Assembly (NCBI GenBank): GCA_036172245.1
Contig: JAYWIR010000011.1
Coordinates: forward strand, 2,108,001-2,172,000
Length of the DNA: 64,000 nt
Reading direction: 5' to 3'
Source: Raillietiella orientalis
Taxonomy: Eukaryota
Below are positions 2,980 through 45,970 of the stretch, in pieces. The translations under genes and the position numbers were made by a program. The notes beneath the pieces were generated by a model. The model made no database searches, was not told the DNA's origin, and saw nothing but the letters and a program-made list of their open reading frames with translations. Position 1 is the stretch's first letter. Each line of letters begins with the position of its first letter.

Positions 2980-3176
2980 CATTGATGCGCGGCACCTGCA
3001 GCCCGTCCACTGGGTTGACAGGAACGTCCTGGAGGAACGGGCGACAGCGTTCCTCTCACTGTCGCCAGTCATGAAGATTCGAGAGGTGCGCGAAGAGGAC
3101 GAAGGGTTCTACAGATGCCGCATCGACTGCAGGTCGTCGAAGACGAAGAACCGCGTGGTGCAGGTTGCGGTCGTAG
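2980..3176 (+). CDS. Side-family exon: C-terminal half of Ig1 (V-set)
   Basis: Polypyrimidine tract then tttcag|C; IDARHLQPVHWVDRNVLEERATAFLSLSPVMKIREVREEDEGFYRCRIDCRSSKTKNRVVQVAVV; donor G|gtaaga. Confidence 0.9.
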
Positions 3177-6100
3177 GTAAGAGCGACAGTCCCCTCTTCC
3201 CGACACCCCTCTCTTTCCCCTACCCCTTCCCTCCTTCACCTGCTGCTGCCTCGGAAAGCAGGCGGGAGAGGGGAAGATCCGTTCGTCTGGGAGAACGGGC
3301 CGGGCCACAGCTTCTTCCTCCCAGAGGCGTCGCCATGGAGACGGCGGAGGGGAGGCGCGTTCCCTGCCACAGGGACATTGTCCGTCATCACCACCGTTAG
3401 GCGGGTACCGCACCTTCTCGCTCGCGCGAAGACAAACCCTCGAACCCGGCGGACGGCCGCTCGCAGAGCACATGCTAACCAAATGCGGGCAAACCTTCAA
3501 AGCGCGCAGGCAACGCCCGTTTCCTAGGCGGCTCGAAAAAAGCACGTGATCCCGAGTTGTTGTTGTTTTGGCTTTCCTTTCTTTCCTTTTTTCTTGTTAC
3601 TTTCCACTGGGACTTTGGACAAACTGAATCCCGAAAGATCCGAGATGCTGAAGCAGCATGGAGATCCCCGTCTCGAAAAGAAGCGCGTCTGGGCTTTGGG
3701 AGATTGTTCCTTTCGTGCTTCCTGACTGGCAGGAAAAGGTCGTTCCGTTCCGAAAGCACGTGACCAGAAGTAGCATATCCACGGCGTCGACCGTAGCCAC
3801 ACTCCCGCTTTGTCAGTAGTATGGCTGCCGTCTCCGCGTGCGGCACCGGGCGTCACGTGGGTTCGAATCCCGCCCAGCTTTGATATCGAGAACATGGGGT
3901 GCATCGTGTGGGTTTCGAGTGCCCCCGCAGGATGGCGCTGGTTGGCCTATTCGGGTGTGGCACTGGTTGATACCTGGTCACGCCGGCGCGTGTATTTATA
4001 GAAAATAAACACACACGTCTGTGGCAGGGCGGTTGCTCCTGTCACGTGACTTATGAATACGAGGAGGAACCTGCCGGGAGATGGCATGCAGGTCAGCGGG
4101 GTTCGCATCTGCAGCACAGAGTAAGGGGAGACAATCAAAAAGGACAAGAAAAAAAATACAGTCAAAAAAATGGGTAAGAGAGGGGGTTCGGTAAGGGATC
4201 ACTGAGCGCTGGACGGCGTCCCCTGCATCCCCGTAAGGACGCCGGCAAGTTCCTGTTTCAAGACTCCCAGATGAGGCCATCTTGACGCTATCCTCACGAA
4301 GACGACAGCAAAATAGATGGCGTCCCTCTCGTCCTGACCTCCTCTGGCGTTGCTGCTCCATGCAGCCACGGTCCCGCCGCGTGGTCAGCAAAGTGCTACC
4401 GGGGATGCGGCCGGCGTGAGGGCGTCGCACAGGAAAAGGACCTTCAAAACGTCTCTGGCGTTGCCTCCAGGGGTTCCTAGGGTCGCGGCAAAGTGTTCTT
4501 AGAGGGGCCGGAGGGCAACGCAGTCCACTAGGAGGTGCGAGAGGGATTCCCGCTCTCTGCACCTTGCATAGTTCGTGTCCACCCCTGCCCCTTGTGTCCA
4601 GTGATGCCGGGAGGCGTTGCACTGGAGGCCCCAGTAAAGCAGCATCAGCGCCGACTCCTGCCACTTTAAAGGGATGGTGCGGGTGTTCCTGAGCACCAAA
4701 GGCCACTGTGGGTCTTCCTCCGGAATACCCGGTAGCACGTCCCAGAGAAAAAGTCCTCGTGGTGCGCCACTGGGGATCGCGGCGCCCGTAAGCTGGTCCG
4801 TCGTTTACTCGCCCAGTCGTTTCCTTTTTCTGGAGGTTTCCACAGTAACCTCCCATCTAGCCGTAAGGCGGCTGTCCGAGTGTTCCCTAAGGGAGGGCAG
4901 CACGGCGGCGACGGAGGTTCTGCTTGCCCACGCACTCTTTACGGGATCTTCCAGAATCTCCCGAAGCGTGCAGTTGTTGTTGCGTGCATACGGGTAACGT
5001 CGCACCCGTTCCACGCTTGGCTCCTGGATCCTCGACCTGCAGCACTGGTGGAGTCTGGAAACCCCCGGATGTCCCCGCGGGCTGGCTGGGATCGGAAGCT
5101 GAGCCTCCGAGGTCCCTTCCGGAAATCGAGGAACCTTCGGGTTCCCTCTGGTTCTAAAAATGGAAGTCCAGAGTCCATCTCGTTACCAAGGAGCTAGTGG
5201 ATAGGATAACTCCCCAGAGTGCAAGGACTTCAGGGAGGGAAAGCAAGGAGCGGCTCTCTTGAGGGTTGCCTATGGAGAAGAAAATGAGTGACACCACCGG
5301 GGTTCCCTTCGGGGTTCCCTCTCAAGTGTGAGAGGAATGGACTGCTTTCTCCGGAGCCCTTCCTGGATTCATAGGATGGTCCCCTCCAGGGGTGACCTCC
5401 TAACTTGAAGAGTCATACGCACCCCTGGGTGGCGTGGGCAGTGCTGAAGAGCTTCCTGAGTCCCCAGTCGAACGGTTGTTGAGTACTTGACGCCGGATGT
5501 TGATCCACAGCGAGTGCCACGCTCTTTGCGATCGTCGAACTGTCGCTCTCCCCCGTGCGAAGGGCACGCTGAAGCGGCTCGGAAGAAACACCGCTAATTC
5601 CCGTCCCTTCTGGTTCGGTAGCATTACGCAAACGGCTGTGATCCCCCTCCCTCCCCCCCTAAAAAAAAAAGGGGAGGGGAGGAGAGGGGGAGAAATGAAA
5701 GAAGGAACGGAAACGCGTGGGCTCCCCGCGACTGAGGAACAGCGGCGCGCTTCGCCTCTTCTCCCCGCCGCCAGAGGATCGGAGAGCGTTTCCAGGAGAC
5801 CGCCGAGCGGGAACGTCAGGCCGAACAGGCGTGGCGCCACTCTGCCACAGGCGCGGCGGCCGCCGGTCCAGAAAGGAACGCATTCTCCTGTTGGACGACC
5901 AGACGACTCCGCCCCGGTCCTGCGCGAAATGCAGGATGGTCGAAGAGCCAGGGTCCGCATCCCGCGCGTCGCTAGTCTCGCAGCGGATGGGTGAGCATCC
6001 GGGACTGGCCGGTATGCCGGAAGCGGTCGGCAGCGCATAGCACGACGAGGAGCTTCCTCGCGGAATCTCTCTGCCTGCAAGACCCTGCGTCATACGCTAA

Positions 6101-9100: not shown

Positions 9101-12100
9101 GAAGTAAAAAAAAGAAAAAAGGTTTCTAGAGTCTTGCTGCTGTTTAATCAATGTGGACAGTTCTTCTCGCACCATACCGTTCGCAAAAATTCGAACAGGG
9201 CAGAATTCGACCTTCTCAGGTCACGTGTTCGCGTTCTTTCTGCAAACAGCTGAAGCGACCGGAAAACCGTACCACCGCAAAATTGAAATTTGCCCGCGTT
9301 GTACGAGTCCGGGTTATGAGAAGCAGGGGGGGCGTCCTGCTACACCCCTATGATCATCCTCCGCATACGAGTCGAGTGCCGCAAGGCAACAGAATCTGAT
9401 ACGTGGTATTCCGAATTCCATTTATTAAAAGTCTAAGATGAAACAGTTTGTGTTCAACATCTCTTGCCGTTCCCGCGACCTTTACGACGGAGATGACTGT
9501 CCGCGCACGCGCGGAACGTCGTGCATGCAGACGAGCACGTGAGGAAAGAGGTCAGGTCCGCAGATCCTCAGAGGCCATCAGCCGGCAGCTTTCCCTCCCG
9601 CGGCGCTCGATGACTGCCCGGAGATGTCTGGAAGCCAAAGAGGGCCTCTGGCGAAGGTGATGACCTTCCCGGTTGAAGAGCGTGCACGAAACTTCATCTG
9701 GAAAGAAACTCTCCGGGAAGGGAAACGCCAGCAGATAAACGCGCCCGAGCCCACGTGAGCGTGCAGAGAGCCACCAAGCGAATGGCACACGTGAGTGTGC
9801 GTCTTCCGCTTCCTCTTCAGGATGATCAAGAGGTTGCGACGGAAACGTGACGGAGGCCCCTGCCGGACCGTTTTCTTCTGGGACCCCTGAGTGGTGTGCA
9901 GGAGCCGAACTGAGGGACATCCTCCGCTGCCGGCTGCTCCTCCCCGCCGGAACTGACCACAACGCTCCGAGTGCAGAAAACCGCCATTCCAAGAGATGGA
10001 AAGGCTGCCGCTGGCGCTCCGTGTTCGCATCGACTGGACCGACTGCAGGTGGCCAATTGCCCACCTGCAGTCGCGGTTTTCTGCACTTGGATGGTCAGTA
10101 TATATATATATATATATATAAATAATCTACCTATATATATATATAGGTAGGTCGATTAATATACAAATGTATTTTAACATGCGAGCTTGTTAGCATTTAT
10201 TAGCATGCATGTTGTTAATATAATTAATAATATGTACTAATATATATAACATGTATATATATGAAAGGTCAGAGAGATAGATAAATATGTTTATGACATA
10301 TTACATCTGATTTTTTCACCATTTTTAATTTTCATCATTATTTTTTGTTTTTTATAGTTTGATATTTATTTATTCAATTAATACATGTTCATCATGTGTA
10401 TAAAGATATATAATGAATAAAAGCATTTATTTTTAATAATATTCGATGTACTAATATATTAATGCATATTATCGACTGCATTAACAGCATGTACGTTAAT
10501 AAATATCAATAAATATATGTCAAAATACTATTATTATTAATAATAAACATATTGAAATAAATTTGCATATCTTTATATACATATGTGTTATATGTATATA
10601 ATAAACAAATGCATTTATTTTTTGTGATCCCTCGGGATTTCGACGTTGGCGATTTTGAGCGGCACCGATCACACCACTTCCGGCCTTCGCGAGCGCCGTC
10701 TCACGCCGGCGGTCCGAAACAGAGGCGTGACGCCGGGAACGCGGCCGGTATCCAAGGAAACGTCGCTCGCCTGCTCCTTTGGCAGTCCACGGCAAAAGCA
10801 GGCACGCCTCTTCCATCGGTTGTTGGACTCCTGCATCCGAGTTCTGAAAAGCTCAACTCCCGTCTCGGAGTCCCGGAAGAGCATCTGCTCCTCGTCTCTT
10901 TCATTCCTCATCTGTCCGTTCCCGTTGGAATCGTCGCTTCGTGACGCCGCGGCCTTCCCCCTCGTTATGACAGAGGCGCCCGCGCTTCTGTTGCCGGATG
11001 GCCATTCGAACTGCCTCGCTGTCCTCTGCTGACCTACGAAGAAGGCTCTCTCCTCGCGTGTGCTCCCCAACAAAAGTTGCGGAAGCAGTTCCAAGGATAT
11101 CTGCCTTTCTTTGTAGCTGCTGCGTGGACCACTTCGTTCCGATTCTTCCGATTCGGACGTCCCTGCGGCAGAGCAAAAGGTGCCTTGAGGCAGGAGCGCG
11201 CGCGAGGGGTGGATTTCTGCCTCCCCTCCCCCTTCCTCATATAGCCCGGAGGCATCCTGTCTCTCGCCTCTTCAGCCCCCTCTCTCCTCTTCCTCGCGGC
11301 TGCAGAGAGCGAGGAAGAGCGGAGGAGGACGCGTTGCCGGCGGCGGGACGCAGCAACCCGTGTGCCCCGCAGAGGGGAGAGGGAAGCCCCCGCTGAAGAG
11401 GGAAGGGTCACAGATGTCAAGTAATTTCCTAGAGCTGCTGGGGCCTCGACGAGGCGCCCCCGTGGAGGACGAGACCTCTCTCCCCCCCCTCGCGCGGGCG
11501 GCGCTGACCCCATGGACGACGACGACTTTTCGTTCCCTCTCTTTCCCTCGTAGTGACCCCATTGTCCATCTCACTGGTCATCCCGGCGGGACCACTGGCA
11601 GCCGGCAAGGAGGTGAACGTGCGCTGCATCCTCTACGGCTCCCGACCCACGTCGAGGTTCAGCTGGTTCTTTGGAGGGAAGGCCATCCCCAGCTCCCAGG
11701 TCGGTGGTGTGCCCGTCCCCGGGGGGTGCAGGAGTCGACGACGACCCTCGGCGCGCGGGGGAAGGGACAGCCGCCTCAACGGTGTGCTTCCAGGTGAGAC
11801 CTCTGAAAGATGGCGCCTCCTCCTCCGTCCGGCTGGTGCTCTCGGAAGAGGACTCAGGGAAGGTGCTGACCTGCCGGGGCCACAACCCCCTCTTCCCCGA
11901 CGTGGGGCTGGAAGAGTCCTTCGCGACGGAGGTCTCCCGTGAGTGCAGGCGTGCGATTTCTCCTCCCTTCTCTCCCTTCCCTCCCTTCTCTCCCCCCCCA
12001 CCATTACCCCCATTTTCTCCCTAGGTCAGTCGCGCGCCCTCGTTTGCCCCCTTCCCTGAGGACCCTCGCGACGACCGGCTGATTGGTTGCCGCTGCGCGC

Positions 12101-15100
12101 GACACGGCAAGGATTGCTGCGTCCAGTGGGGACCGGGCCACAGCCTTCCCCTCCCCCTTCCTTCCGCCTTGGGACCGCCAGGCGCGACGCGGGGCGGGGA
12201 GGGAGGAGTGCTTGAAGGCGAGGCGACGCTGACCGCAGGTCGAGGGTCCCGCGTGGCGGACTCCTAGGCGGCAGGGCAGCATTGTGCGGGGTCAGCGAGC
12301 CCGACTATCTCCGATAGTACTGGAAGTTACCGTTGCGGCGCTCACTACCTTCCCCTCCAAACAACCGCCTCGACGCGATCCCCCCCCCCCCCCCTCCCTG
12401 AAGAGGGGAGGGGGAAGAAGGGCGGGAGGGAGGAACTTGCAGGGTGGACAGATGCGGAAGAGGGGGCGAGGGAGTGTCCGAGAACCGCCACGAGGGGTGC
12501 GCACCACATCAGTCGGACCACCGCCAGGAGTGCGCGAGCGCGAAGGTAGCAACCCAAGCTTGGCGTCGCACGCTAGATGTGCGCTGCCGCTGCTCGCTGG
12601 ACCGCCTCCGCAAGAAGTGGGGAGCTGGCGCGCGTCCGCCCTCCAGTCCTCCCGTGCGAAGCTTCCTTCCCCTCCGTGGGGGCGCGGCAAAGGGGACCTC
12701 AGCCGTCGTCCCGGATGCCTCCCGTTGCCAGGGTCGCAGGACCTTCCGGAACGGCGCGCGTCGCCTCCGCGCAGTCTCACGGCGGCGGCTCCTCCCCGTC
12801 CGCCTGCAGCGCGGCGGCCGCCTCCTCCCTCGCTGCTGCCACGGGCGAATTCCAGGTGCCCCCGTGGTCTCCCTGGCAGTGAACGGGAACAACCGGTCCG
12901 TGGAGGTGCGCGAAGGAAGTGCCGTGCGCATGGAGTGCTCCGTGAGGCCCACGGACAGCGTCTTCAGCATCCGATGGACCCAGGACGTAAGTCGCCTTCT
13001 CATCCCGGACAGAGGGCTCCTCGAGGAAGGAAGGGAGGGAGGGAGGAAGAAGAAGGGAAAGGGAAGGGGAGGAGGGAGAGAAGAGAGGAGGAGGAGGAGG
13101 AAGTGAGGGAAGACTAGGAAAAAGAAGGGACGATGACAAGGGAGGAGGAAGGGAGGGAGGGAGTCGTCGCCTTACCGTCGCAACTCTTTCCCTTGGCCAC
13201 ATGGCAGCGCCTGCGGTGGGCGGCGTCTCAGTAGCGGGCTGGACGGCGCGTTTTCCCTCGTTGCCCAGAACCCAGCACTCGGGGCGCGGCAAGGGAGGTA
13301 GCCACCTCGATGATGGGCCAGATGGGCTCGCCTTCGGGAGCCTCGGGCGTCGCTCGAGCATGCCCCCTTCCTCGCTATCCCCAGAATCCTCTGCGCCAAG
13401 GAACGCGAGCTCCTTTTGGTGCCGAAGGATCCAGAGGGAAGAGGGTAGGGGGGTGGGGTAGAGCGGAGGTTTTCGTCCGAAGAGCCTGGTGAGATGGGAC
13501 CTCAGGAGGGCTTCTTGGGTCAACCGCCCGTCTGCCAGTCCGGGAGATCCGGGACGGGCGGACCGAATGACGTCCTGGTGACAGTGGCCACCCCAGGCAG
13601 GACCGGAAGAGGGATGGATTGAAAAGGGAGTTCCCTCTTTCCTAGAAGGGGGATGGAAGTTTGGCGTATCCCTCTACGCCACCCCTCCCCCTTTCAGAGG
13701 GGAAGGCGAGGGAGGATTGAGGACTGTCTGCTCTTACTTCTCGGGTCAGAGAGGTCCGGTCCATGGAACTTCCCGATTCCCTGACGCATCGCAGTGTGGG
13801 TGGTTGGGTGGGTCTGGACTCGGAGGTGTTTCTGGGGAGCCTTGCAGTGGAGGTAGGAAAAGCGAGAGGAACGCGACTCCCTTCCCCCATCCCGTGCCAC
13901 CCCCACCCCCGTGGAACGACGTGTGCCCCGCAGAGGAGCAGGGAAAAGAGCGACTGGGGTGACCAAAGGACTCCGCGCGGGGATGGTACAGGGGAGGAGA
14001 TGCAGCAGGTGGCCCCTCCCCTGCCCCAAGGAGCCCCCTCGCCCCAAGAGTTCCGAATCCTTGGACGGGTCCTTCATCTCCTCTCCTTTCTTTCAGGGAC
14101 ATGTCCTGAGGGACGAAAACCAAAGGAACGCCAACGCTGAGAGTGCGCTGCTCCTCCTCGGAAGCGCTCAGAGGGGGAACGCCGGGCTGTACCAGTGCGA
14201 GGCGACCAGCCCCTCGGGCCGGGGGCTCAGCAACCAAGTCGCCCTCTTCGTGCATTGTCAGTAGTCACCTTAGCAACCGCCCCTTCCTCCTCCTCCCTTC
14301 CTCCTCCTGCGAGGTCTCCAGACCCACGGACCGCCCCCACGATTCCCCCCTCCTCGTCTCTCTGCTCTCCTGTTGCATCCACTCGTTAGTGGAGTGGACT
14401 GAGGCTCGGGAGACGGGAGAGGTGAGAACAATCTTCCTCCCCTTTCCCGCCTCCCTCCCCAGAGTTCCAGGAGAACGAAGGCACAGGGGAGGCACCGAGG
14501 GCTTCAAGCGGAAAGAATTGTCCCGATCGGTTCCCAGGGTCAGCTGCTCTGCGGGGAGGGCTTCACCTGGATGCAGAGGAGACCCTCACCCTCCTCCTCC
14601 AGGCGAAAGCTGTGAGGACGGAGAAAGGGAGGGGGGAGGTCAGAAGGGCCTTCTGCCGTCTTGACCTGCTGAAGTCCTGAGGGTGCATCGCTCCTGCACC
14701 GAATTTCCGACCGCATCACGTTGCTGAGGTTGATGGGGGTGTCTCCACCCCCCTCACAGGAATAGGTTCGAGGCCGCGAAAGTGCTGCCGAGAGAGCTGG
14801 AGCGTTCCCGACGAGGAGACAGCGCGTCCCGGAGTTCAAAGTATCCTCCCGCGGTCGACACGCTCGTGTCTTCCTCCGCACAAGCAGGAACCGGCCCCTT
14901 CGCGAGGGGGTGGGTATCCCGGAGGCGGGGTGGTCTTCTCGGGGAGTCAACGCTGATCCTGGGAGGTGGCGTAGGGGGTCGAATGAGCTTTCATAGGGGT
15001 CGACGGCGCCTGGAGCCATCCTCAACTCCAACGGCGTGCCACCGAGTCCTCCGTTGATGCAGGAGGCTCCCCCCATTCCCCGCGCGCGCACGCACGCTTC

Positions 15101-18100
15101 TCGGGACAAGATGCGCACCCGCCCTGCTGTGCGGAGGAGAGCGACTGGAGCGTATCGACTGCCCGCCGATCCTCCAGGGTTGCCAACTTTTTTGTGTTTT
15201 CCCTCGGATTTTTTCTCCTACTGCTCGCCTCGCCAGGAGAGGGAAGGCAGGCGCACCCCTCGATGAGCTTCCGCCCCGCCCTGCCTCGCGAGGCGAGGGC
15301 GCTGCCTCGAAACAGTGTTGCTGTAGAAACTTCGTCCGTCTCATCCCTTCGTTCCCGCGGTCTGAGTCCGCGCCACTTCGATCTTCCTTTGCGAGCGCCT
15401 CCTCAGGCATCGATCCTGATGGGAGAACGGGAGACTTTCGTTTGAGGTCCTCTGCTCCAACTCTAGGAACCTCCACCCGCCTAGAATTCTTCGGGATACT
15501 CACGTCTCTCTTCGAGAGAGGGGGGGGGGAGGTCATGTCTGAGAATAACCTTGGTGGATCCTGGTTCGCTTTCCAGCAAGAGTCGAAGAGGGATAAAGCG
15601 GTCGGCCGCAGGTGCGTTCGCGAAAGAGCTCGAGGGAGTGCAGGCGTTCAGGTTGCTCTCTACTGACTGCCTCCCGGCCTCCTTCCTTCGCGTGCCGACC
15701 TCCGGCAGGTGATCTCTGACCTTCCCATCATCCCGATCGATGTTACGACAGCGACTTCGAGAAAGAAGAATGGACTGGCTTGGTGAGTGAGAAGGAGGGA
15801 GGTTGAGGGTCTGGCCTCCGGCCACTTCGCAACGGGAAAGAGATCCTGTCCCCATAGCAGTGCGGCGTACGAGGCGCCCGTACACGCATCCTTTTGGCCC
15901 CATTATCGATCGACTGCTGACCAGGAGCAGCTGCTGGGCTGACAAAGGGCTGAATGTCTTGGACTTCGGCAGTCTTCGCGGAGGCCTTCTCCAGGGCCGT
16001 GGGCTTCCCATCTCTCGTTTTGCGCTCTTGGACGCTGACGGCCCCTGCCCCTTTTCTTGACTGCCCACCGTTCCGAAGTCCACGGAGGAGACAAAGAGGC
16101 AACCGTTCCACCCTCCTCCTCCCCAGAGCTTCTTCCCCCGCCCTCTCCGTCGCCTCCATCCCGGGCCCGCGAGCGACCTTCCCTCTCTGACTCCCTTTTT
16201 CCATCTCCTCCCTAGCGGCTGTTCGTTCCGGCTGCTGTCTAGCACGGAGGGAGAATTCAGGGAAACCTGGAGCTTTCCCGGTGGTCTCCGAGTCCCAGGC
16301 TTCCCCAAATGGCATTCGTGGAGGGCGAGCTTATTCGAGGATGTCAAGCCATCGAGAGGCGAACGCACAAGGCATGGTCACGGCTTGCCACTGACGATGG
16401 AGTCTGATGTCGTGAGAGGCGATTGACATGCAAAGAGCGCAGTCTGGGATGCTCACGCGGCGCAGGGACTGTGGGACCGGATGGTCGCGTGGGATTCGGC
16501 CGATGCTTTATATAGGTGGAAGACTTATAAATAGCAGCGTTTAAGCACCACTGATAGGGATGCTAGAATTACCCTCCACATGGCTCCTAGCTGTAAGAGA
16601 AAGACGAAACATATGGCTCCGGCGCGCGATCGGTACTGGATTTCAAGAAAGCGAGTGGTAAGCTCGTAGGACGGCATCTAAAGGAGACTCTGGGAGGAAG
16701 TGGGTACAGGACAGCTAAAACCTCAGCTCGGAAAGATGGAGGGAGTCCTCAGGAAACGAAGGGGTGAAGGTCTTCGTGGCCCTCTTGGAGAACCACCCGC
16801 ATTACATGGCGCCGGCCAGAGCAGGGGACATTTGAGAAAGTTTCCCTTCCGAGAAAGAAGACTTCGCCATCTCGATTTGTTGGAGGATCCGGAGGAACCG
16901 ATTTTCGAGGAAGGGATGACTTCCTGTTGCTCTGATGCCTACTCCGTCTTGATCAATGGTCGTCTGTGACGCAAGCCTCCCGCAGCGCTATTCTGCAAGG
17001 GTTGTGCAGGCGTGGTGGCGCCGGGGTAGAAAATTCCGTGCCTCGGTTCTTGCGGGAAGTCAGGTCGTCCCATGAGGTCTTCCTGTGTTCTGTGGTGCCG
17101 TCTGCGTCCTCTTTAGGATGCAGACCAAGCCGATCTGAGAGAGCCTCGGAGTGCCCTCTGGCGGCCGTCGAACGCGGAGAAGACGGCGACACGATCCTCA
17201 TTTCCGTTTCCTCGAACTGCTAAAATGGTTCCGGAGCAGCACACCATGATTTTCCAGCTCTCCCGTCGCTCGCAGGCTCATCCCTGCTGTGCATTGTCCC
17301 CCCTCCCCCTCCTTTCCCCTCGGACTGTCGAGGGCGACTGTTTCGCGGCAGTCTGCACCGGCAGTGATGGCGTTGGGGATTCCGGCATCCTCCGGAAACC
17401 CAGAGAAAAGGACTGCCTTCTTTCTCCCTGGCGCTTTCGCCAAGGGAGGCAGCGTGCTGGAACCCGTCTTCGCCACCCACTGCGCCTATGCTCGCATTCG
17501 GATTTGTCTTCTCCCATGCGAGCGCAGGCGTAGTAGGCGGCGAAGAGAGCGTTTCTTCCCCCATTCCCTCGTAGGTTTCGAAACCGCTCACGTTTGTTCG
17601 TCCCGCGAAGCCTGTACCAAGGGTTTAATAAGGAAGATGCGCTTCCTGGTCAAGAGATGGCGTGGGGAGATGGAATGAATCGAGGAAGGAGACTTGCCCG
17701 CGCCTCCAAAGAGAAGTCTGCTCAGAGGACAGCTGGAGTTGCCTAAGACGGAACCTTGGAACGCTTGCGTGCACGGACGGGTGCGCTCCCGGACGCGAGC
17801 GCCCCAGATTCTCGGTCCGCATCCCGTTCCTTTTGAACGACAGTGGACCTCTTTCGCAGACTGTGCTCCTTTCTTGCCCACACGGGCACGGCACCCTGTT
17901 GCGCTCCTCCGCTGCCCTGACCAGCCTCAAAAGGAGACCTTCGTGGGTTTCCCTCTCTCTTTCCTCGTGAGTCTCCTGGAAGAGAGCGGAAGAGAGATCG
18001 CTGGGACCGCGTACAGGATGAGAGGGCGCTCCTCCCTCAGAAAGCTGCTCGTCTCGCACTGGTAAGGGGAGTCCCTCCCAAACCCCCTCGCCCCCTGCCT

Positions 18101-22245: not shown

Positions 22246-23899
22246 GTAAGCTCGAAGGAAGGGAGCCGCCCTCCCAGGGATACCCGCTCACCCCAGTTTC
22301 CCGGCGCGGGTCGCCGTCCCGCAACTCAGAGGGGTCTCGCCGCTCAGGAGGACGAAGCGATTCGTTTATCCCCGGGAGGATTGGGGTAGAAGGAGAATGT
22401 GGCTACCCGTTGGACTGAGGGGAGGTGACCTTGGGGAGCTTCGATAGAATTGTATTGATCCCAGCGGCAAGCGGCGGTGAAAACGGACCGTGATGCAGCC
22501 AAGGGGACGTGTTTTGGAAGCGCGACGGGCTGCCCTCTCCTCTGTTCTGCTCGCTTGCCCTGTCATAGAGGGGCGGGAGGAAGGGAGTGGAAGAGGGCCG
22601 GACAGCTTCCACCCTGAGGCTTTCTGCACCGGGAAGGGCTGATCTCAGGACTCTCATGCCCTGCGGTGCTCCGCGTCCCCCCTCCATCGCCGGCAACAAG
22701 GGCCCCAGAGCGCTCTCTCTCCTGCAAGGAGCTGGAAAACCTCTTGACCGCGGTCCCACCAGCCAGCAAGAGTTGCCAGCACCTCTTCTGCCTCGACCGA
22801 GCTCCTTACCCTCAGCATCCTTGGCAGGCAGGATCGCTTGCTCATTTGAGGGCAATATTTTGAACTCCTTGACCTGATGCAGATCAGAAGTGCGTCCGTT
22901 TCTCCCTTTTTTCCTCCTCCTCCCCCTTTTTCTTCCCGTTGACCCCCTTGGTATGAGTTCCATGACCCACTCGTTCAGGGATCCTCCTCCCTACCGGTCT
23001 TAGAAGCAGCGGATGCAACGGTGCCATGCCAACGCAAAGTGAAGAGCACGGAACGGCATCGCCGTGTGCGCAAGACACACGAACAGCTTCTCTGACCTGC
23101 TCTCGTTCTGACACTGCCCAGAAGTCACGCGTCCTCCCTCCTGGGTTCTTCCCCCTTCCCTGTTCGGAACTCGAGAGATTCGCGCAAGATGGCACTGCTT
23201 GGAGGAGCCTCGAAGTGGCCATAACCTCAATGGAGTGGCCAGAGTGAGCGGTCGGGTTCCCTGACTCAGCAAGGTCGGGTCGACGCTGAAACCTCCAAGG
23301 GCTCTCATGGCTTTGAGGTGAAGGGTGTCTCGGGGAGGACAGGACAAGCTCGAGGGGAACAAAGGCGCGGCGAACGTCTCCGATGCTCTCCATCCATGGA
23401 CTGTGGGTTGAGTTCCGTCTGCTTGAGAGCGTCGGCTGGGGGTTCCAAAGAGCGGGCCGGTATTTGCACTTGTCACAAGTCCATCGGATCTTCACAGATG
23501 TGTCCGGAACCGGAAGTTCAGCAAATTTCACCAGCACCTCCCCCTAACGAGATAGAGAAAGCGAAAGCACTGAAAGTAACGAAAAAATCCGTTGGAAACC
23601 GCAGTGCCAGAATCTATGAGCTGTTGTTCGCTTGCCAAAAAAGCCGTTCCATGAGAAAAAGAAAAAGTGCCTAGGAGCCTGTATCCAAGGAAAGCAGTAA
23701 TTCGCTTCCGCCGGAAGTGATAGCTGAGGCAACGGTGCTTATTTGGAAAAAAGAGATGGTAAGCGAAATGACCCGAGGAAGCATTCAAAACTTGAAAATC
23801 CTTGCTAGGAAGGAAAAGCAAACCAATGTCTCAACAGCGTTTTGCGGTTGCGGCCGTGCGGCCCAGGAATGCCGACAGCTCTTCAAATAAACGTTGCCC

Positions 23900-24660
23900 T
23901 CGTTGGCGGCCGTACGGCCGCGGTCTCCGCGCATTGTGCCAAGTGTCGGGAGTTCCAATCCCGCCCGGGGAAGGATCGACTCCGGGAATGGGGAGGGGGA
24001 GGAAGTGCGTCTCGTGGGTTTCCGAATTCCTCCCTCAAAGTGACGCTGGTTGACCTCGGTTGGCTTCGGGTGCCGCATCGGTGGAAACCTCGTTGAGTGG
24101 CTGGGATTTGGAAGTTGTCCCTCCGGGGTTCTTCCAGGGACCAAGAGGGGTTCCCCTCCGGTTGTGCAAATGGAACTCCCCAATCCCTAGGGGGGGGGAG
24201 ACCCTCCATCTCGTACCATGGAGCTGGTGGATTGACACCTCTCCACAGCGTGAAGAAACGCTCTGCTCCCTTCGGGGAGCGACCCCTCAAAGAAAATTGG
24301 AAAGCGTTCGTTCGGGGTTCTCTTCAGAGTTCTCTTCGGGCTTCTAAGGAGCGGCCCCTCTGGGGGGATCCCTCCGGAAGGCAAAAGGAAGAGGCTCCCT
24401 CCCAAGCGTGAGAGGAACGGACTCCTCCCTCCGGTGCCTTCCCGGATGCATAGTGCGGTCCCGCCCCCTATGAATTGAAAAGTTGGCATGCACCTCGGGT
24501 GGCTCGAAACAACGTTGAAGAGCTTCGTGAGCCGTCACGGAAACGACGATTCGTGAGGCACTCGTCGATCCCCCCCCCCTTCCCCTAAAAAAAGGAAAAC
24601 CTGAGGAAAAATAAAAAAGCGAAAAGAGAACAGCCAAAGAGAGAAGCATATAAAAGGATT
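23900..24660 (+). mobile_element. Diverged near-full-length copy of the tRNA-headed SINE-like element
   Basis: Degenerate B-box (agttccaatcccgccc); ttcggggttctcttcagag; caagcgtgagaggaacggactcc at 24403, identical to 43117-43139; GCTCCC-TTCG-GGGAGC hairpin at 24265-24280; A-rich 3' end. Confidence 0.8.
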
Positions 24661-25639: not shown

Positions 25640-26600
25640 TCACGTTTTTGCACTTCTCATCACACCGGTTGTGATGAAGATATGAACTGCTGTCATCACC
25701 GTAGGAGCACTGCCTCCAAGACTTCCAGTCTTGTGCTGGCATGCAGGCCCATCACCGCCTGAAGCACTGTCCATTCTCGGGCAGGCGAGCACGTGGACCT
25801 GCGTTCCCTTGCCCCCACACGCCGCACAGAACTCGTCTTGGATGTTTCCTACCCGGTGCCTGATCCTCGATACACCCAGGATTCCTCCGCGGTAAAACAT
25901 GAGGAGGTCGTCCCGAGTGTCCGGTAGTAGACTGCCAATCCAGCTGCTTGCAGGTTCGCGTTCCGTCTGGCAGCCGCAACGACGAAGTCGCTGTTTTCTT
26001 CTTTTGGAGCAATGAGTTTTCTGGAGATTTCTTTTTTTATTATTCTGGACCACGCGCTTTCCACATTCGTCGTATCCTGTGGACGAGTCTTCCTAGGACT
26101 CTCTCGGTGTAGAGGAACAGTCGCATTCTTTGGCAGTTGCCACTCGTAGCGAATGGTCCTGAATGGACTGGACCTTTTGATGTATCCGTTGCCACGTCTC
26201 CCGTGGAATGAGAAGAAAGCAAGGAATGATCAAGGCCGGTTTTTCGTCCCATCCTCTTCCAGGTGGGATCGATCTACTCTCCTGGATCGCCTTTTAGGGC
26301 TGGCTGACATCAGTCCACTCGAGCTGTTTAGCAGCTTCGAGTGGACTCTGTGAGCCGCAAATGGCCACATGTCGCCATCCTCGGCGAACTCAAGGAGTTG
26401 CCTCGCGTCCATGGTTTCCAAGGAGTGTTCCAGCGACTTCATCCCTGTCCCACCGTCCTCTCGCGGGAGCTTCGAAACGAGAGGCTCTTCAGGAAGGTTG
26501 TCTGGCAGGCCGTTTCGAAACTCCTGTGGATCATCATCAAGTGACTCCCTCATTACTTCGCCATTATCTAGTGACTTCGCTTTGTGTTCCATTCCCTTCA
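25640..26600 (-). mobile_element. Degenerate non-LTR retrotransposon ORF2 (post-RT region and CCHC)
   Basis: KLPREDGGTGMKSL (LPxxxGGLG motif) and downstream FCAACGGKGTQVHVLAC zinc knuckle; frameshifted. Confidence 0.65.
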
Positions 26601-38600: not shown

Positions 38601-39919
38601 CACAATTATGAAAACAGCATTAGATTTTTGCATATAGCATATTGTATTCATTGTTCACAAACATAACTATAATTAGATCTCAAAAGTAAAAAGACAAAAC
38701 TTCATTTTTCAAATAATCGTGAAATTGCATAACGGTAACTTTCATATCTATATTATTAATTTTTCGCATTCATTATATTTCACTTAACGCCTTGCAAGCC
38801 CACTTTACTCTCGCATACACCACAGCATATTATGACAAGTAATGCATAAAGCAAGAAGATAAACATTAGAAGTTGAAACCTATTCTTTATTTTTATGAAA
38901 GAAATGCGGATAATTCCCGGGATGAATAGAATCTCTTAAATCAATGAAATGCCGATAATTATGAAGACTGCTCACCAACTGAGTGTAATTTATCAACGGT
39001 AATTTACTGATAATGGCTACCATCATCACACATCACACATTTCAGACATCTACTAGCTTGATGTTAGTAATGTTTCTCTTATGCCATACTTAATATCCAT
39101 AATTCCATTTCTGGAGTAGAATTTTAAAAAAATTTTCTCATGAAAAAAATGTCAACATCAGTCACACAGAGAATTACGTACTCGAGTAATGAATCGATTG
39201 TGTGGTACATTATTTGGAAGTTTTTTTTTTTATTATTATCAATGCGGGATTAACATTGTCTAATCTTATAAGATTCAAATTCAAATCATGTTTTATTTTA
39301 TTTTATCATATATTAAAGTGTCTCAGTTTTTCTTTTAGAAACTCTAAATAAAATCAGACAAAAAGTCAGCCTACTAAGAAACTTCTATCAGAAAAGAATA
39401 ACCGCAAAATATTTATCAAATATCTTATAAACTGAAATCACAAAATCACATGAAATGCCATGGAACCAACAAAATAAGAAACAGAAGAATAAAAGAAAAC
39501 TGACAAAAGTAGACCTTCCTCCTCCTTCAATAACACCGCCGTATAGTGGCGCGACCGAAGAAGAGGAATAACAGGCAATGGAACTAGAAATGAAAGCAGC
39601 TACATCCGCTGCAGCGATCCATCTGGACAACACTCTTCTTCCTTGCCACCAGCAACTCGTCGAGACGATTCTGTGGAACCACCATCCGCCGCATCGACGA
39701 CAAGAGCAGGCTGGAGCATATGATCCACGTGCTCTGCAATCTGCATTTCGAAAGCAGGAAGATGAGGCAGGAAGCGTACTGGGAGCTGAACATCGAAGAT
39801 GAGGATGAACATCGTTCCCTCTGAGGGTACTGGGAACCAGTACGAGTGGTAGTACGCATCCCGCAACGTAAAAGGGCAGATCGGTATGCAAGAAAAGAAA
39901 AACATCGCCACCGCTGTCT

Positions 39920-41020
39920 TTGCAACAGAATTCGGACAGGAATTTCGGCACACGCCGGAAGGGATTACGGAGACGCTCCAAGACCGTTACATCACGTCAA
40001 GATCTGTGCCCGATAGAACAGCAGGTCACCCTGCAACGCCCGACGAAAAAACTTTCATACACATACAAAGAGGAATTGGGCATGGACATTTACTACGAGA
40101 GAGTCAAGAAGACGTTCATAGAACTGCTCAGAGACGTGATGGCAGGTGCCCATAGTGTTCCCATCTCGCACTATCAAAGATACCAGCACGCCTACCTGCG
40201 TCTGTTCCACGAATTGACTATCAGTATTCAAGAAGAAAAGCTTCCGGAGTCGTTTGACCAGAGTAGGATGCGGCTGCTGCCAAAAAGTGGCGATCTCAAA
40301 AAAGTCACTCAGTGGAGGCCCATCTCCATCTCGAATACGGATGCCAGACATCTGGCATCCGTATTCGGATGGCCTGAAGGTCCGGCCGTCATTGCTTTCT
40401 GTTACGCAGACATGCGCCGCGCCTGGACGACGCATGTCTGACAGCGTGAAGTGCACCCAGGCCACGATCGGCAACATCCGGTGCGTTGGTGGCATCCTGG
40501 TAATGGCATCCACAGACATAAGAGCACCATTCGACATTGTGGACTACAGGATATTGCTACGAATCCTGGAGAAGATGAACTTTCCACAGTACTTCCTGGA
40601 GTACATGCGAATGACCCTCAAAATTCCAATAAACAGACATGAGACGGCACAACCAGGACAGAAAAATGAATCCTTCAAGGAGTATGTGGGAGCTGTAGCT
40701 GTGTCGGTGATCGTTGACCTAAAAGTCAGCCTCCAAGGACTGACAATGGGAAACAACAATCTGACCCATCTAGCATATGCAGACGACCTTCTCTTCTTTC
40801 CTGACAGACAAAAAGGATCAGCACGCTTCCTTTCTGAAAGACGCATTTCCGGAAGTGCTCAATCAGGGGAAAAAAAGAACTGGGCCTGAAAATCAACGAC
40901 CAGAAGCTGCTTATCAGAATCCTGGATCACCCCACTAAAGTAAGAAAGCTTCCGAGTGGTAGATGAAGTCAAATACCTGGAAATCCCCATCGGAGGAACC
41001 TCGGCCTCGCAAACGTTGTG
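39920..41020 (+). mobile_element. Degenerate L1/Tx1-like reverse transcriptase pseudogene
   Basis: LPESFDQSRMRLLPKSGDLKKVTQWRPISISNTD; DIRAPFDIVDY..L..ILEKMNF; LAYADDLL; GLKIN; EVKYLEIPIG, spread over several frames. Confidence 0.85.
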
Positions 41021-41081: not shown

Positions 41082-41405
41082 TTATGGACACGTTTTAGCT
41101 ACACCAAAATTCGTACCAAATAGTTAGACAGTGATATCGATGCTCCAAATGGTTAAGATGAGCCACACTGATGCATATATTCCCTGTGGCAGGTTATATG
41201 GGCATATCGATGAAGCATTTAGTAGTCCAATCAATAATACGATTCTATTCCCCTGAGTTAGGTTATACCATTCAAAAGGAAATAAAACTCCTATAGAAAA
41301 AATTAGTAGGTAAAACGACAAATCACGGAAGTATGTAACAAAAGCGAACATAAGCAGCATTACTATTGAAGGCAGTATTCTAATGACAAGATGACTATCT
41401 GCCAT
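41082..41405 (-). pseudogene. cdsA: Phosphatidate cytidylyltransferase, 5' part (Wolbachia-like)
   Basis: MADSHLVIRILPSIV...FEWYNLTQGN...LTIWSIDITV*LFGTNFGVAKTCP*; start overlaps the uppS stop; 3' half missing. Confidence 0.85.
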
Positions 41406-42020
41406 ATCCTTTGTCTCTTTTTGCATAATCTTCTAGTGCTTTACCCAAATCTTGACAAGAAGAATCAGACCACAAAGTATCGCAAAAATACAATTCAGCG
41501 CAGGCATAGAACTCAGCGCAGGCTGATTGCCATAACGGTGGAAAAAGGTCACTTTACCTTTTTCCACCCGTTATTGCGAAAATCCTAGTTTAGCAAATCT
41601 TTAGTTTACAGAAATTTTTCAAATTCCTCTTCTGATACACGAGCAATATTTCCTTTCATAATAGTGCTTACAGCATGTGTAATTCCTTGTTTCGCTCCGT
41701 AGCTGACCGTCACAGTAAGTATGAAATCGTTCTCAACTTGATGCTGTAATTGCACATGAAATTGATTCTACCGTCGTTAGTTCGTACATAGTAAAATAAA
41801 TCAAATAGATAGTTGGTTTCTTCTTTAGTCTAAGCCCATTCTCCATGGCAAATTCGTATAAAGTCGAGTACGGTGTGGCTAGAGCTGTGCAATGCTTAGC
41901 AATATCGAGTATGCAACCTCACTGCCCTTTCCATAACCATCAAGTTTTATCCTCCCTTGGTTGTTTGTCCACCGACCACTGTTATGCATAATGATTGCCA
42001 AGTGCTTTTGGTAATTTGCT
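41395..42020 (-). pseudogene. uppS: Undecaprenyl diphosphate synthase (Wolbachia-like)
   Basis: HLAIIMHNSGRW; VSYGAKQGI; SEEEFEKFL*TKDL; AELYFCDTLWSD...EDYAKRDKGYGR*; stops, frameshifts and an internal deletion near 41735. Confidence 0.9.
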
Positions 42021-42026
42021 TACCCT

Positions 42027-43671
42027 TCAGTGATTCAGTATATCCTTTTCCTTAGTGGATAATCCACTGTGAATCTTTTTGATATTGCCACCAGTAATAT
42101 TCTGTATTTTCTTCTTAGTACTATGAAAGTTATCTTCTGAGATTTCTTACCTCCCTGCATTTTTTCTATTTCTTCCATAACATCTCTACGTCTGTTTCTA
42201 ATGGCAACGCGCGCATTTTCAGCAAACCGGTGCCATCATTTCATTAATCTTTCACTTTCACGGGCTTCTTGCGTTAGATCTTGAAGAGTTTCACGTGTAG
42301 TGCTACCCTCGATAACAGGATTTAAATTTGAGTTAGCATTCAGCATAGCACTTTTTGCTTCATCTATGACGCATCCTCCGCCCGCGTCGGAAGCTTTGTG
42401 GTTAAGGCATCCGCGTGTGGCACCATGAGTCGCGGGTTCGAATACTCCGGCAGAAACTGACGCCACTGCGTCGTTGGGTTCCGAGTCCCTCCTGCAAGAT
42501 GGCACTGGTTGGCCGAGACATTCGGGATTGGCACGGTGGTCGTTTAAGTCGGAGGCCCCCGATGAAGACCGGAACAATGGGAGTCGACCTTCGACCTTCG
42601 GGTCCTTCCAGGAATCAAGGAGTGGGGAATTCCCCCTCCGGTCGTACAACGGAGAGAGGACCCCCCACACCGGGGGTACCCTTCCGGTTGGTTTCAACAT
42701 GGAGCAGAGACCTCACGGGCACCTCTCCTAGTTGTTCAGATGGAGCGGACCTCCCTTGTTGCTGGGGTGCCTCCGAGTCGTCGCCTCTTCACAGAGTGCA
42801 CAAGGAAGCAAGCGAGAGCGATTCCCTGCGGAAAGCTGCAGCGCCCCTTCTGAATTTCGGAAGCGTCCCTTCGGGGTTCTCTTCAGAGGAGTGAACAGGA
42901 GCGGTTCCCTTGCGGGTTCCCTTTGGAGAAGAAATTCCTACAAGCGGATCCTTTCCGGATTCCCTTCGGAGAAGTTGAAATGACAGCCCCCCTCCCCATT
43001 GGAAGGGGAAGGTGTCCCTCCGGAGAGAATGAGGAAGGAGATTCCCTTCGGGGTTCCCCTTCGGAGACAACCAGGGTAGGAGGTGCGATCTCCCCCATCC
43101 GGGGAGGATTCCTCCCCAAGCGTGAGAGGAACGGACTCCGAGCCCTTCCTGGATTCATAGGGCGGATCCACCCCTATCCCGGGGTGCCCCCTATCCTGAA
43201 GAATTACATGCTCCCCTGTGGATTGTCGCAGGAGAGAGGCGTGGAAACAGAACTGTGTTTGAAGAGCCAGTGCGCCGCGAGGCACGCGACCGGCTCTTGA
43301 GGCACACTTAGCGAACCAAAAAAAAGTAAACCCGAAGAAAACAAACAAACAAAAAAAAAAAAAACAGCGAAGACATGGCAGAAAAAGAATTTTCCAAGGA
43401 TTTTCCATCATCCAATAGTAAAGATCTCATCGCGGGGTCGCTACTGGCCTTTTAAATAAATATAAAAGATAAAAAAAAATGATACGTCCCAAACTTTAAT
43501 TAACGAGGTACTGAAACAATTTTTGATGCCCGCCATAGATACTCACAATTCTGCCATCAAGTAATGATGGCATGAACTCTGCCGGTGCGTGTACTTTAAT
43601 ATCATCATGGAAAGATACTGAATAGTTTTTAGCATCCTTTCCTTTGTTTTTGTTTTCACTCCATTCAACAT
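42027..43671 (-). pseudogene. frr: Ribosome recycling factor (Wolbachia-like), split by a 1.1 kb host element
   Basis: 5' half 43671-43480: MLNGVKTKTKERMLKTIQ...IKVWDVS; 3' half 42370-42027: VIDEAKSAMLNANSNLNPVIEGST...FAENARVAIRNRRRD...KEKDILNH*. Confidence 0.92.
42371..43479 (+). mobile_element. Long tRNA-headed non-coding SINE-like element with cUUCGg hairpins and A-rich tail
   Basis: A-box-like aagctttgtgg; tRNA-His-like ccgcgtgtggc; B-box ggttcgaatac at 42435-42445; CTTCGG at 42596, 42869, 42964, 43046 and 43059; ends aaataaatataaaagataaaaaaaaa; both ends are defined by the two frr halves. Confidence 0.85.
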
Positions 43672-43681
43672 AAATTACCTA

Positions 43682-44403
43682 TCATTCATAATCGGAAACT
43701 GCAGTGTAAGTACCACAGCCCTTAACGACGTTGATCATTTCGCCTTCTTTCAGAGGAAGAACTTGAATTGGAACGGAATTCTCACGCGCAAGTGGGATCG
43801 CTGATGCATCCATAACTTTTCAATCACGAGTCAGCAAATCCATGGAAGAAAGCTTATCGTACATTACAGCATCCACAATTTTATTTTTCGGATCGGCGGA
43901 GTATACACCGTGTACTTGGGTACCTTTTAAAATCACGGTTCCTTTCAGCAGCAAGTACAGCTGCAGCCTTATCTGTAGTAATTACCTGCACCTGCCGCAA
44001 AGATCACTACTCTTCCTCTTTATAAATGACGAACGGCTTTTCTCCTTATACAAGGCTCGCGTGTAGTGGCCATGGGTATTGCAGACAGCACTCTAGAGTC
44101 TACTAAATTTTTCTCTGCAAGTTTTTGTAAAATCAAAGCGCTGGTTACAGTGGCAAGCATTCCAATATAATCACTTCTTGCTCTTCCACAACCACTTGAC
44201 GATGCAGATGCACCACGAAAGATATTGCCGCCACCACCAGCAACGCGTATCTGAAGTTCGAGCTTGTGGACATCAGCTACATCTTTGCACAGTTGATCTG
44301 TGACCTACACATCATGACCGTAAGGCCGTGATCCAATCGAAACCTCGCCAGAGATTCCAAATAACACTCTGGAGTATTTTACTTTAGCTGCTGAGGCAGT
44401 CAT
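43682..44403 (-). pseudogene. pyrH: Uridylate kinase (Wolbachia-like)
   Basis: MTASAAKVKYSRVLFGISGE...GGGGNIFRGASA...SDYIGMLAT...[22 protein letters not shown]...[15 protein letters not shown]...GTYTAVSDYE*; internal stops and frameshifts. Confidence 0.95.
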
Positions 44404-44413
44404 TTTCAACTAC

Positions 44414-44628
44414 TTAATCTCTGATACCTAAAACAAGCGACATATAATCAGGCAATTGAACACCAGAGCTTAAATTTTATTAGCTTCAACCCTTATAAAA
44501 TTCTGTTCTAATAAAGCAACTCCTTCATAATATTTAGGCCATTCGACTATCTACTGTTTTTTTTTTTTTGTGTGTCGCTTCAGGTTTATGTAATCTTTTC
44601 ATTTGTTCTTCAACTATAGAGCGTTCAG
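44414..44628 (-). pseudogene. tsf: Elongation factor Ts, 3' fragment (Wolbachia-like)
   Basis: ERSIVEEQMKRLHKPE...KYYEGVALLEQNFI...LVLGIRD*, directly upstream of pyrH as in the conserved operon. Confidence 0.85.
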
Positions 44629-44699
44629 CCGATATTGGTTGAGTTACTTCATTATATTCCCCCCCCCCCCTTCCCTTGTTGTCCGTAGGCCTCCTGAGT

Positions 44700-45045
44700 A
44701 ATGGGAACTAATATAGAATTATGCAATAAACACAAAGAAAATATGATTAACAACAATTCACTGATTAAAGGTAGTGCAAGGCACAGATCTCCGCAAAAGC
44801 AGTCTTTAGGAGGAAGATGGAGAAATGCAGTTCCCGAGTTGTTGCTTGGTGCTGTGGGGACCACACTGCCTCCAATGGGAAATTGCATCTGAAACTGCTG
44901 CCATTGGAATAGTGGCAACGGCTACGTTACCAGGAATTGCTGGTATCGTGATCGGTTGCCTAGCGGGGTATCTTGTTGCCGAAAAAGATAAATCAATGCC
45001 GCGGTAACCAGCAACATGCAGCATCTCAGCCTCTAGCGTGTAGCG
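44700..45045 (+). pseudogene. Possible fragment of a Wolbachia-type membrane-anchored hypothetical protein (C-terminal hydrophobic helices)
   Basis: IASETAAIGIVATATLPGIAGIVIGCLAGYLVAEK; lies inside the nuwt; family not recognised with certainty. Confidence 0.4.
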
Positions 45046-45109
45046 GAATGTCGATAAGCCTTTAGTTATGGCATAAAGACCACAAAGGTCACGCAAGACA
45101 ATAAACGGT

Positions 45110-45970
45110 GAACCAACCTTGTTTCAAACAGAGTGCCCATGTGCTCCGTTTGCCTTAGGAATTCACGAAAAATCCTATTCCTTTGGCCGTCGCTCGCATT
45201 TTTCATCGAAGACTGCGTTCTTTCTTTTAGACCAAAAACTCATAAAAATTCTCCTCTCCGATTCAAAATCTCGCGATCTACGCTTTTTAATGAATCTCGC
45301 AACTCCGGAAGATTCACAAGAGCAGCAATACCACCATCACCAACATCTTCAAGAAGATTTGCATATTTATGATGCTTTACCGATCGCAGAGTGCTCTTAT
45401 ACGCAGGATATACGTAGACATAATCTATAATAAAAGCGGCTCCTCTATTATTGTAGATCTTCTCAAGTCTTTTCAATATTTCAGTTCCAGCTGGTCGTAC
45501 TTCCACTACTGCACCATCAAAAAGTATTCCATTTGCCATCTGAGTAGCTGATGCTGGAAAACACCATTCCTTTTTTTCCTGGATTCCAGTGTCAAGCACG
45601 GAAGTGACACTGAGAGGCTGCCATTATCCTCTTTTTGTTATTCAATTTTCATGCCACTTTTAATACGATGTGCAAACGGATCCATAGGAAGAGCGTCAAA
45701 AAACTCATTTGCTACTATTTGTATTTTCGTGCCAGTTAATATCTGGACCCTTTAATCTTTCCCTTTGTATCTCCTGTAAAGCAAGTGGATCGACGCTGAA
45801 TCAAAACAGTATTCTATTTTCTAGTCACTCTAATTAAAACGCGAATCAGTGTTCATTCACCAGGCCAAAGTTCAACCACAAAAAATTTTGATGGCTTTCC
45901 GAATTTTTCACATCCATGCATTACCAAAACTCCAATTATTTCACCAACTAAGTGACTGATTACGCGTGCA
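45110..45970 (-). pseudogene. SAM-dependent methyltransferase, MidA/NDUFAF7 family (Wolbachia-like), 5'-truncated
   Basis: SHLVGEIIGV...GKPSKFFVVELWPGE*TL; ANEFFDALP; GAAFIIDYVYVYPAYKSTLRSVKHHKY; IAALVN; HMGTLF. Confidence 0.9.
45536..45610. repeat. Wolbachia palindromic element remnant inside the methyltransferase gene
   Basis: catctgagtagctgatgctggaa ... ctggattccagtgtcaagcacggaagtgacac resembles the recurrent Wolbachia repeat arms (ctggattccagtgtcaagcactggaatgaca, recalled). Confidence 0.75.

Follow-up and report, generated by a model that had tools for sequence, protein, structure and literature searches.

What is the non-coding stretch at positions 42380-43479 of the window (the whole 64,000-nucleotide stretch of DNA analysed here), with its tRNA-like head and its recurring CTTCGG motif, and does selection keep its predicted fold? 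An earlier note on this DNA had described a ~1 kb tRNA-headed SINE-like mobile element, and the dispersed copies, sharp 5' end, TSDs and A tails that we found bear this out. The element is a decayed copy of a ~1.1 kb gene-less SINE, a selfish repeat with odd anatomy, and we hold its identity as a SINE, taken alone, to be highly probable. The fuller explanation that we prefer, a decayed SINE copy plus some selection on the fold, has in our judgement an even chance of being right.

The copy in the window and its insertion site

The copy is a dispersed-retroposon insertion on the plus strand. Of the span first proposed for it (42371..43479) the 3' end holds, and the 5' end moves by 9 nt to the sharp start of the family at 42380. 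Its parts, and the 11-bp repeat with three mismatches that brackets it, are:

42366..42376, plus strand: probable, decayed left copy of the TSD, 11 bp, 8/11 identical to the right copy; frr homology reaches it
42380..42456, plus strand: tRNA-Arg-like head, with a degenerate A box at 42391-42401 and a B box at 42435-42445
42457..42575, plus strand: post-head domain, common to older relatives; it holds a short hairpin, a stretch that resembles another B box, and a strand predicted to be able to pair back to the head
42576..43300, plus strand: body of about a dozen related hairpin modules joined by purine linkers
43313..43393, plus strand: internal A-rich linker, the end point of most 3'-truncated copies
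43412..43453, plus strand: terminal hairpin, then TTTT at 43450-43453, a putative Pol III terminator; the family consensus has no other T4 run
43454..43479, plus strand: A-rich tail, seen in the sequence
43479..43489, plus strand: probable right copy of the TSD

The A-rich tail had been reported before, as had the lack of a credible ORF: three ORFs (158-162 aa) lie over the element, and none has a Pfam match. The copy is 92% identical to the 1,080-nt consensus of the young family, and mutation has given it two extra internal T4 runs, at 43390 and 43401; it is probably dead.

The element lies within DNA of bacterial origin, represented on its two sides by:

42033..42373, minus strand: 3' part of a decayed bacterial frr (~residues 75-184; tblastn E 7e-14 against bacterial RRF proteins, Pfam RRF below cut-off)
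43490..44400, minus strand: 5' part of frr, with weak matches (residues 35-54), and a decayed pyrH of Wolbachia origin

In a protein search the pyrH piece matches Wolbachia UMP kinases at 77-78% identity, on the left frr homology restarts right beside the element, at about residue 75, and the flanking gene order on the minus strand is pyrH, frr, uppS-like and cdsA, uppS being assigned by eye. The automatic TSD search gave the TSD of this copy no score, and frr homology abuts it from both sides. Because frr is split by the element and the 11-bp repeat brackets it, we conclude that this copy inserted into Wolbachia DNA that the chromosome had already taken up; the bacterial DNA is thus chromosomal and older than this SINE copy. 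The wider region, at about 41100-45650 on the minus strand, is a decayed Wolbachia-derived segment in an animal chromosome that comprises pyrH, frr, uppS-like, cdsA and a methyltransferase, and its best pyrH matches are Wolbachia of Mansonella and kin.

A long tRNA-derived family and its candidate LINE partner

The genome searched was a 210-Mb animal assembly, in which 40/40 scored candidates matched the element at 82-100%. Thirty copies were extracted for the young family; these are the best hits, a sample that therefore leans towards copies that are long and similar. Their 5' ends coincide sharply, and their identity to a 1,080-nt majority consensus is 89-98%, the young element being ~1,060 nt long without its tail. 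Clear TSDs (score 9-17) flank 13 of the 30 close copies, the controls never scoring above 8. The tail is reached by 10/30 copies, and the other 20/30 break off between consensus 852 and 1030, within the A-rich linker or close to it; in several of the 3'-truncated copies the last 1-6 bases of the element are also the first bases of the TSD. When the two older copies of the window served as queries, the relatives recovered were ~680-900 nt long; they share 78-88% identity with a 746-nt consensus, which is itself 77% identical to the young consensus, and the family as a whole ranges from 680 to 1,080 nt. These two copies are:

3804..5492, plus strand: older relative in which a ~1.06-kb insertion separates the head (3804-3974) from the body (5039-5492)
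23897..24604, plus strand: older, shorter relative of ~700 nt

By eye, the start of the insertion at 3975-5038 resembles insertions in other old copies, such as that at locus L071. Also by eye, the 5' junctions of two other loci (L017 and L021) carry short inverted copies of the element or its flank, which suggest template jumps during insertion.

Forty evenly spaced 10-kb stretches of large contigs held ~21 copies (merged matches, counted by us) in 15 of the stretches, at 2.6% coverage, which extrapolates to ~11,000 copies in total (6,800-16,900), ~1,000 of them young (130-3,800). Strong mosaicism marks the shared variants, among which 377 of 819 pairs are incompatible; this points to many recombining sources or recurrent mutation. 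A tRNA head, A and B boxes, dispersal, non-coding content, TSDs and a simple-repeat tail, the marks of a tRNA-derived SINE, are all present, and at ~1,060 nt the element exceeds the SINEBase size range of 75-662 nt, a range that is descriptive rather than strict.

The Pol III-like A and B boxes seen earlier are indeed there and at tRNA spacing; the A box agrees at 9/11 positions with the A-box consensus. The arm had been called tRNA-His-like, and here the assignment changes: among 53 distinct host tRNA sequences the best match of the head is tRNA-Arg(CCT) (48/79, with 0/200 shuffles as good), and His ranks 9th to 23rd, so that a tRNA-His origin is rejected. Neither ARAGORN nor Rfam calls a tRNA on the element. 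In both the young and the older family the first 42 nt of the head are predicted to form a single rod, not a cloverleaf, and a G-C to T-A swap in this rod distinguishes the two. A second tRNA-like half in the post-head domain was not significant (12/200 shuffles as good).

At the other end, full-length copies show 3-5 T followed by A runs (8 copies matched this pattern), and the terminal hairpin with its T run is kept in three older copies among other loci. The putative Pol III terminator directly before an A tail is a likeness to the T+ SINEs B2, Dip and Ves, as outlined in PMC8466645 and PMC10572872; unlike these, the consensus holds neither AATAAA nor ATTAAA, and the AATAAA that marks a polyadenylated T+ SINE is thus absent from it.

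The A and B boxes and the confinement of T4 to the 3' end of the consensus are hints of Pol III. Pol III would start at the tRNA-Arg-derived head and stop at the TTTT past the terminal hairpin, giving an RNA of ~1,060 nt, which a LINE protein of the L1/Tx1 clade would copy into the target at a nick. Full-length copies would result when an added A tail serves for priming, and the 3'-truncated ones when a target end pairs with the A-rich linker or with nearby single-stranded bases. The family would be fed by many mosaic source copies, not by one master gene. In therian mammals, L1-made tailless retropseudogenes have been described as arising by internal priming at single-stranded, A-rich points with target complementarity (so the outline in PMC5322556); the 3' truncation here is alike, whereas the element is an invertebrate SINE with a coexisting full-length, tailed form. 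The relaxed, L1-type mode of LINE-SINE partnership, in the terms of PMC3747384, fits the TSDs, the A tails and the internal priming.

Candidate partners are abundant. The search for RT gave 3,358 candidates, of which 150 were scored; the top ones are LINEs that have long open frames, an endonuclease and RT, and that frequently lie in tandem close to the ends of contigs. From their layout, not from a tree, we take them to belong to the L1/Tx1 clade. The SINE tail was compared with the ends of LINEs at 40 loci, all belonging to one main clade, and no homology was convincing (2/11 LINE ends at 3/200 shuffles or fewer), with only two blocks of 10-12 nt in the SINE 3' end resembling Tx1-like ends, and for this reason we only infer the partner LINE. 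A genome search with the tail alone returned 40 matches at 91-100% and singled out no partner. Relevant LINE sequences are:

39675-41018, plus strand, and 25670-26466, minus strand, of the window: decayed L1/Tx1-like LINE fragments
L131:1-120; L301, 125-600, minus strand; L217:5050-5640, minus strand (other genomic loci): LINE family with ~400 nt of young SINE body in its 3' UTR, the L217 unit being internally deleted

The second of these raises the question of whether the SINE body came from the 3' UTR of a Tx1-type LINE, the element being a LINE-tailed SINE or an internally deleted LINE. Comparison with LINE 3' UTRs had been proposed as a check, and one Tx1-like family, seen twice (L131/L301 and L217), does carry SINE consensus 348-762 at 77-78% identity just after its ORF2 stop; LINE parts can supply SINE bodies, by the account in PMC5786205. 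However, in a tree of 39 rows (midpoint root, bootstrap not fully settled) the LINE-borne pieces nest within the young SINE family with support of 99/97 and the older SINEs outside, sister LINEs have short UTRs without the piece, and the 3' end of the SINE differs from that of the LINE. The match stands, and its reading as the source of the SINE does not: nesting inside the young family means that the LINE acquired the piece from the SINE, most simply as a truncated SINE insertion. A LINE origin of the body is thereby rejected as largely refuted and very improbable, and the piece by itself does not prove a partnership between the two elements.

Hairpin modules and selection on the fold

All five CTTCGG that had been counted in the element (42596, 42869, 42964, 43046 and 43059) lie inside the body. 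Each module is predicted to fold into a purine-rich basal stem, a 5' bulge (mostly C), 2-3 G-C pairs, an internal loop, a C/G apical stem and a loop of 3-6 nt; the internal loops are small and symmetric (A/A or UU/UU) and a purine linker follows each module. Five CTTCGG compare with a mean of 0.47 in dinucleotide shuffles of 42380-43310, none of 2,000 shuffles reaching five, and across 124 element pieces the density is 3.9/kb in the sense and 0.16 in the antisense direction, against 0.39/kb in the masked background.

The hairpins quoted at 42593-42604 and 42867-42876 are where they were placed. The statement that CTTCGG mostly closes short stems applies to three of the five, with stems of 3-4 pairs; the other two are module-linker junctions with one pair. 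Likewise, the UUCG hairpins at 5130-5145 and 24265-24280 exist, not as different stems but as paralogous modules of older relatives at other positions. CpG decay of the hairpins, put forward to explain variant loops, is rejected: transitions affect 4.2% of CpG and 3.5% of other G/C sites, and the TTCA-loop hairpin regarded as a decay product is present in both family consensuses. Since CpG sites do not decay faster, the retention of TTCG needs no special defence against methylation. "Highly structured" describes the family consensuses better than the copy in the window, which folds little better than shuffles (z from -2.9 to +1.1 in ten 200-nt windows, compared with -3.5 reached by the family consensus in the head).

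Young and older families differ by gain or loss of entire modules. Further, we suggest that the body grew through duplication and loss of one ~45-nt hairpin module, and the abundance of UUCG is largely due to this expansion. The earlier note had named internal tandem repetition alone as the outcome that would undo its reading of CTTCGG; such repetition largely explains the count, and several modules nonetheless keep true inverted matches with different letters.

The fold tests, about 20 in number, relied on stems predicted from the consensus, and their P values are uncorrected. Variants were called shared when found in at least 3 of 29 young copies, L002 being left out as a near twin, and the shared set includes recurrent mutations. 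A first test of shared against private variants looked strong but was confounded by transition bias; after stratification only the young-family transversions remained, with 4/24 of the inherited or shared ones in stems versus 103/208 of the private ones (P=0.002, uncorrected). The same test on the older set showed no effect (4/14 versus 161/407, P=0.58), and a permutation test on all shared variants was not significant (P=0.09-0.43). The LINE-borne piece keeps 0/4 CTTCGG; among its fixed stem changes seven break and one keeps a pair, compared with 15 that break and 26 that keep among shared SINE variants (P=0.016, or 0.07 at a stricter threshold), and its stem changes resemble private mutations (149:56, break to keep). 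G-U pairs favour the sense strand, by 15 to 3 in the old and 9 to 4 in the young family, and no asymmetry of C>T versus G>A was found in stems (P=0.68-1.0). RNAalifold, which had been proposed as a check for structure, predicted 0 pairs over 49 head regions, and pairs changed on both sides numbered 20 versus 19.3 in shuffles (230/500 shuffles as high). The covariation score of the named head structure was 0.184 versus 0.170 (4/500 shuffles), a difference that relatedness alone can give. Support for selection on the fold is thus mixed and modest. In its favour count the young-family transversions, the decay of the LINE-borne piece, the G-U bias, the swap in the head rod and the true inverted matches; the older set, the permutation and strand-asymmetry tests, RNAalifold and the double changes weigh against it, and the balance is about level.

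These results bear on a reading in which the element is the same SINE and its hairpins are a neutral by-product: a near-palindromic unit of a G run and a C run was tandemly duplicated, any C run pairs with a G run that lies next to it, CTTCGG is simply where units join, and palindromes are tidied by template switching. Consistent with it, in the older copies TRF detects direct repeats of a 12-nt unit, at 5298-5320 and 24311-24345, direct repeats of such a unit give symmetric UU/UU and A/A loops, module number varies with element length (680-1,080 nt), sense and antisense folding energies are near equal in the young family (-310 versus -303), and the RNAalifold, double-change, strand-asymmetry and permutation tests are null. 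The true inverted matches in several modules go beyond what direct repetition gives, however, and the hairpins outside the array (head rod and terminal hairpin) are kept in both families, those in the LINE-borne piece decay, and two orthologous loops vary only at the free position of the UNCG class. We regard neutrality as a substantial possibility, though short of an even one; were it correct, the element would be an ordinary repeat, worth adding to a repeat library. On our preferred reading of some selection, source copies that keep their hairpins would probably have had an advantage, their compact RNA with its short, interrupted stems being longer-lived or better picked up.

A self-cleaving, retrozyme-like RNA was also considered. 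Near 798-851 of the young consensus stand CTGAAGA and, past one hairpin, GAAAC, a pair that recalls the hammerhead core. Yet no Rfam family, ribozymes included, matched the window, the element or six loci at gathering score (the best was NrsZ, 32.6 bits against 76.9 gathering, on the opposite strand), the spacer is 4 nt and a stem III is lacking, the old consensus retains neither motif, and the copies are single, with a tRNA head and TSDs. The hammerhead reading is rejected, and self-cleavage is exceedingly improbable.

Likeness to known elements and neighbouring observations

SVA and LAVA, which are VNTR composites, form length variants by gain and loss of a degenerate internal unit. So does the quasi-oligomeric SINE CHRS, a precedent for a repeated unit inside a SINE (outlined in PMC3531059). 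The present element differs in that its unit is a bulged hairpin of ~45 nt and that it has a tRNA head in place of Alu-like or retroviral parts. SINEBase, by its published overview, comprises 175 families of 75-662 nt, with a tRNA head plus a body of unknown origin as the commonest layout (41%; PMC3531059). The same overview shows the element to be like such SINEs in its A/B-box head, non-coding body, A-rich tail and TSDs, and to differ in its length of ~1,060 nt without the tail (the longest listed there is 662 nt) and in a body that is an array of hairpin modules. SINE superfamilies with conserved central domains are CORE, V, Deu/Nin, Inv, Meta, Ceph, Pln and Mesc (PMC5804259). Within the literature searched (most subscription journals and supplementary SINE libraries lay outside this scope) we found no published description of such an element, and an unusually long tRNA-derived SINE with a hairpin-array body and a BC1-like layout is new as far as this literature shows, SINEBase being compared by published lengths. 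The known size range of tRNA-headed SINEs is stretched past 1 kb, and the element illustrates how repetition of a hairpin can give rise to a SINE body.

In rodent BC1 RNA the order of parts is a tRNA-derived rod, an A-rich middle, a punctuated A region and a terminal stem-loop, according to the description in PMC1828541. BC1 RNA and ID elements resemble our element in the 5' rod, the A-rich middle, the terminal stem-loop and in copies that often stop at the A-rich part; this is a likeness of layout that implies no homology, the element being seven times longer than BC1 and known from sequence alone. Another possibility is that the host itself uses a Pol III RNA from a giant, BC1-like master gene, with the hairpin array serving as a multivalent scaffold that binds proteins, and that the copies arose from this RNA as by-products. 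The BC1 order of parts with its own terminator, the terminal hairpin and T run of the three older copies, and the frequency of tailless copies, which PMC5322556 in its outline treats as typical of abundant cellular RNAs, would agree with this. Mosaic variants indicate many sources, however, the age-class consensuses are only 77% identical with entire modules gained or lost, among the other stretches of DNA compared we saw no look-alike, and no master locus was seen; we consider such a master gene quite improbable. A broader form would be a kilobase Pol III RNA, laid out like a giant BC1 and possibly host-used, in which selection keeps a dozen or so bulged, UNCG-capped hairpins as a multivalent array that binds a host protein or, alternatively, the LINE particle; we regard this as doubtful as well, and a role in the host as unlikely. 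What SINE bodies do is an open question, for which this family offers natural controls in its length variants, its thousands of decaying copies and the LINE-UTR piece with decaying hairpins.

Several further features were noted. At loci L211-L220, LINEs stand head-to-tail at a spacing of ~5.5-6 kb, many of them on small contigs or close to the end of a contig, and share the same short terminal hairpin; these arrays are possibly subtelomeric. L220 has a differently built ORF with the same end hairpin. The window holds a 3'-truncated U4 snRNA copy at 2805-2886 on the minus strand (Rfam 51.7 bits); a 7-bp repeat flanks it, and it probably arose as a tailless retrocopy through the machinery that also copies the SINE. 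Just past the LINE 3' end in L213 and L216, a stretch that by eye is like this U4 fragment opens the next array unit, possibly a U4 target or a captured piece. Finally, positions 2980-3177 on the plus strand are exon-like, and their translation presumably resembles an immunoglobulin domain of an arthropod sidestep/nephrin-type gene.
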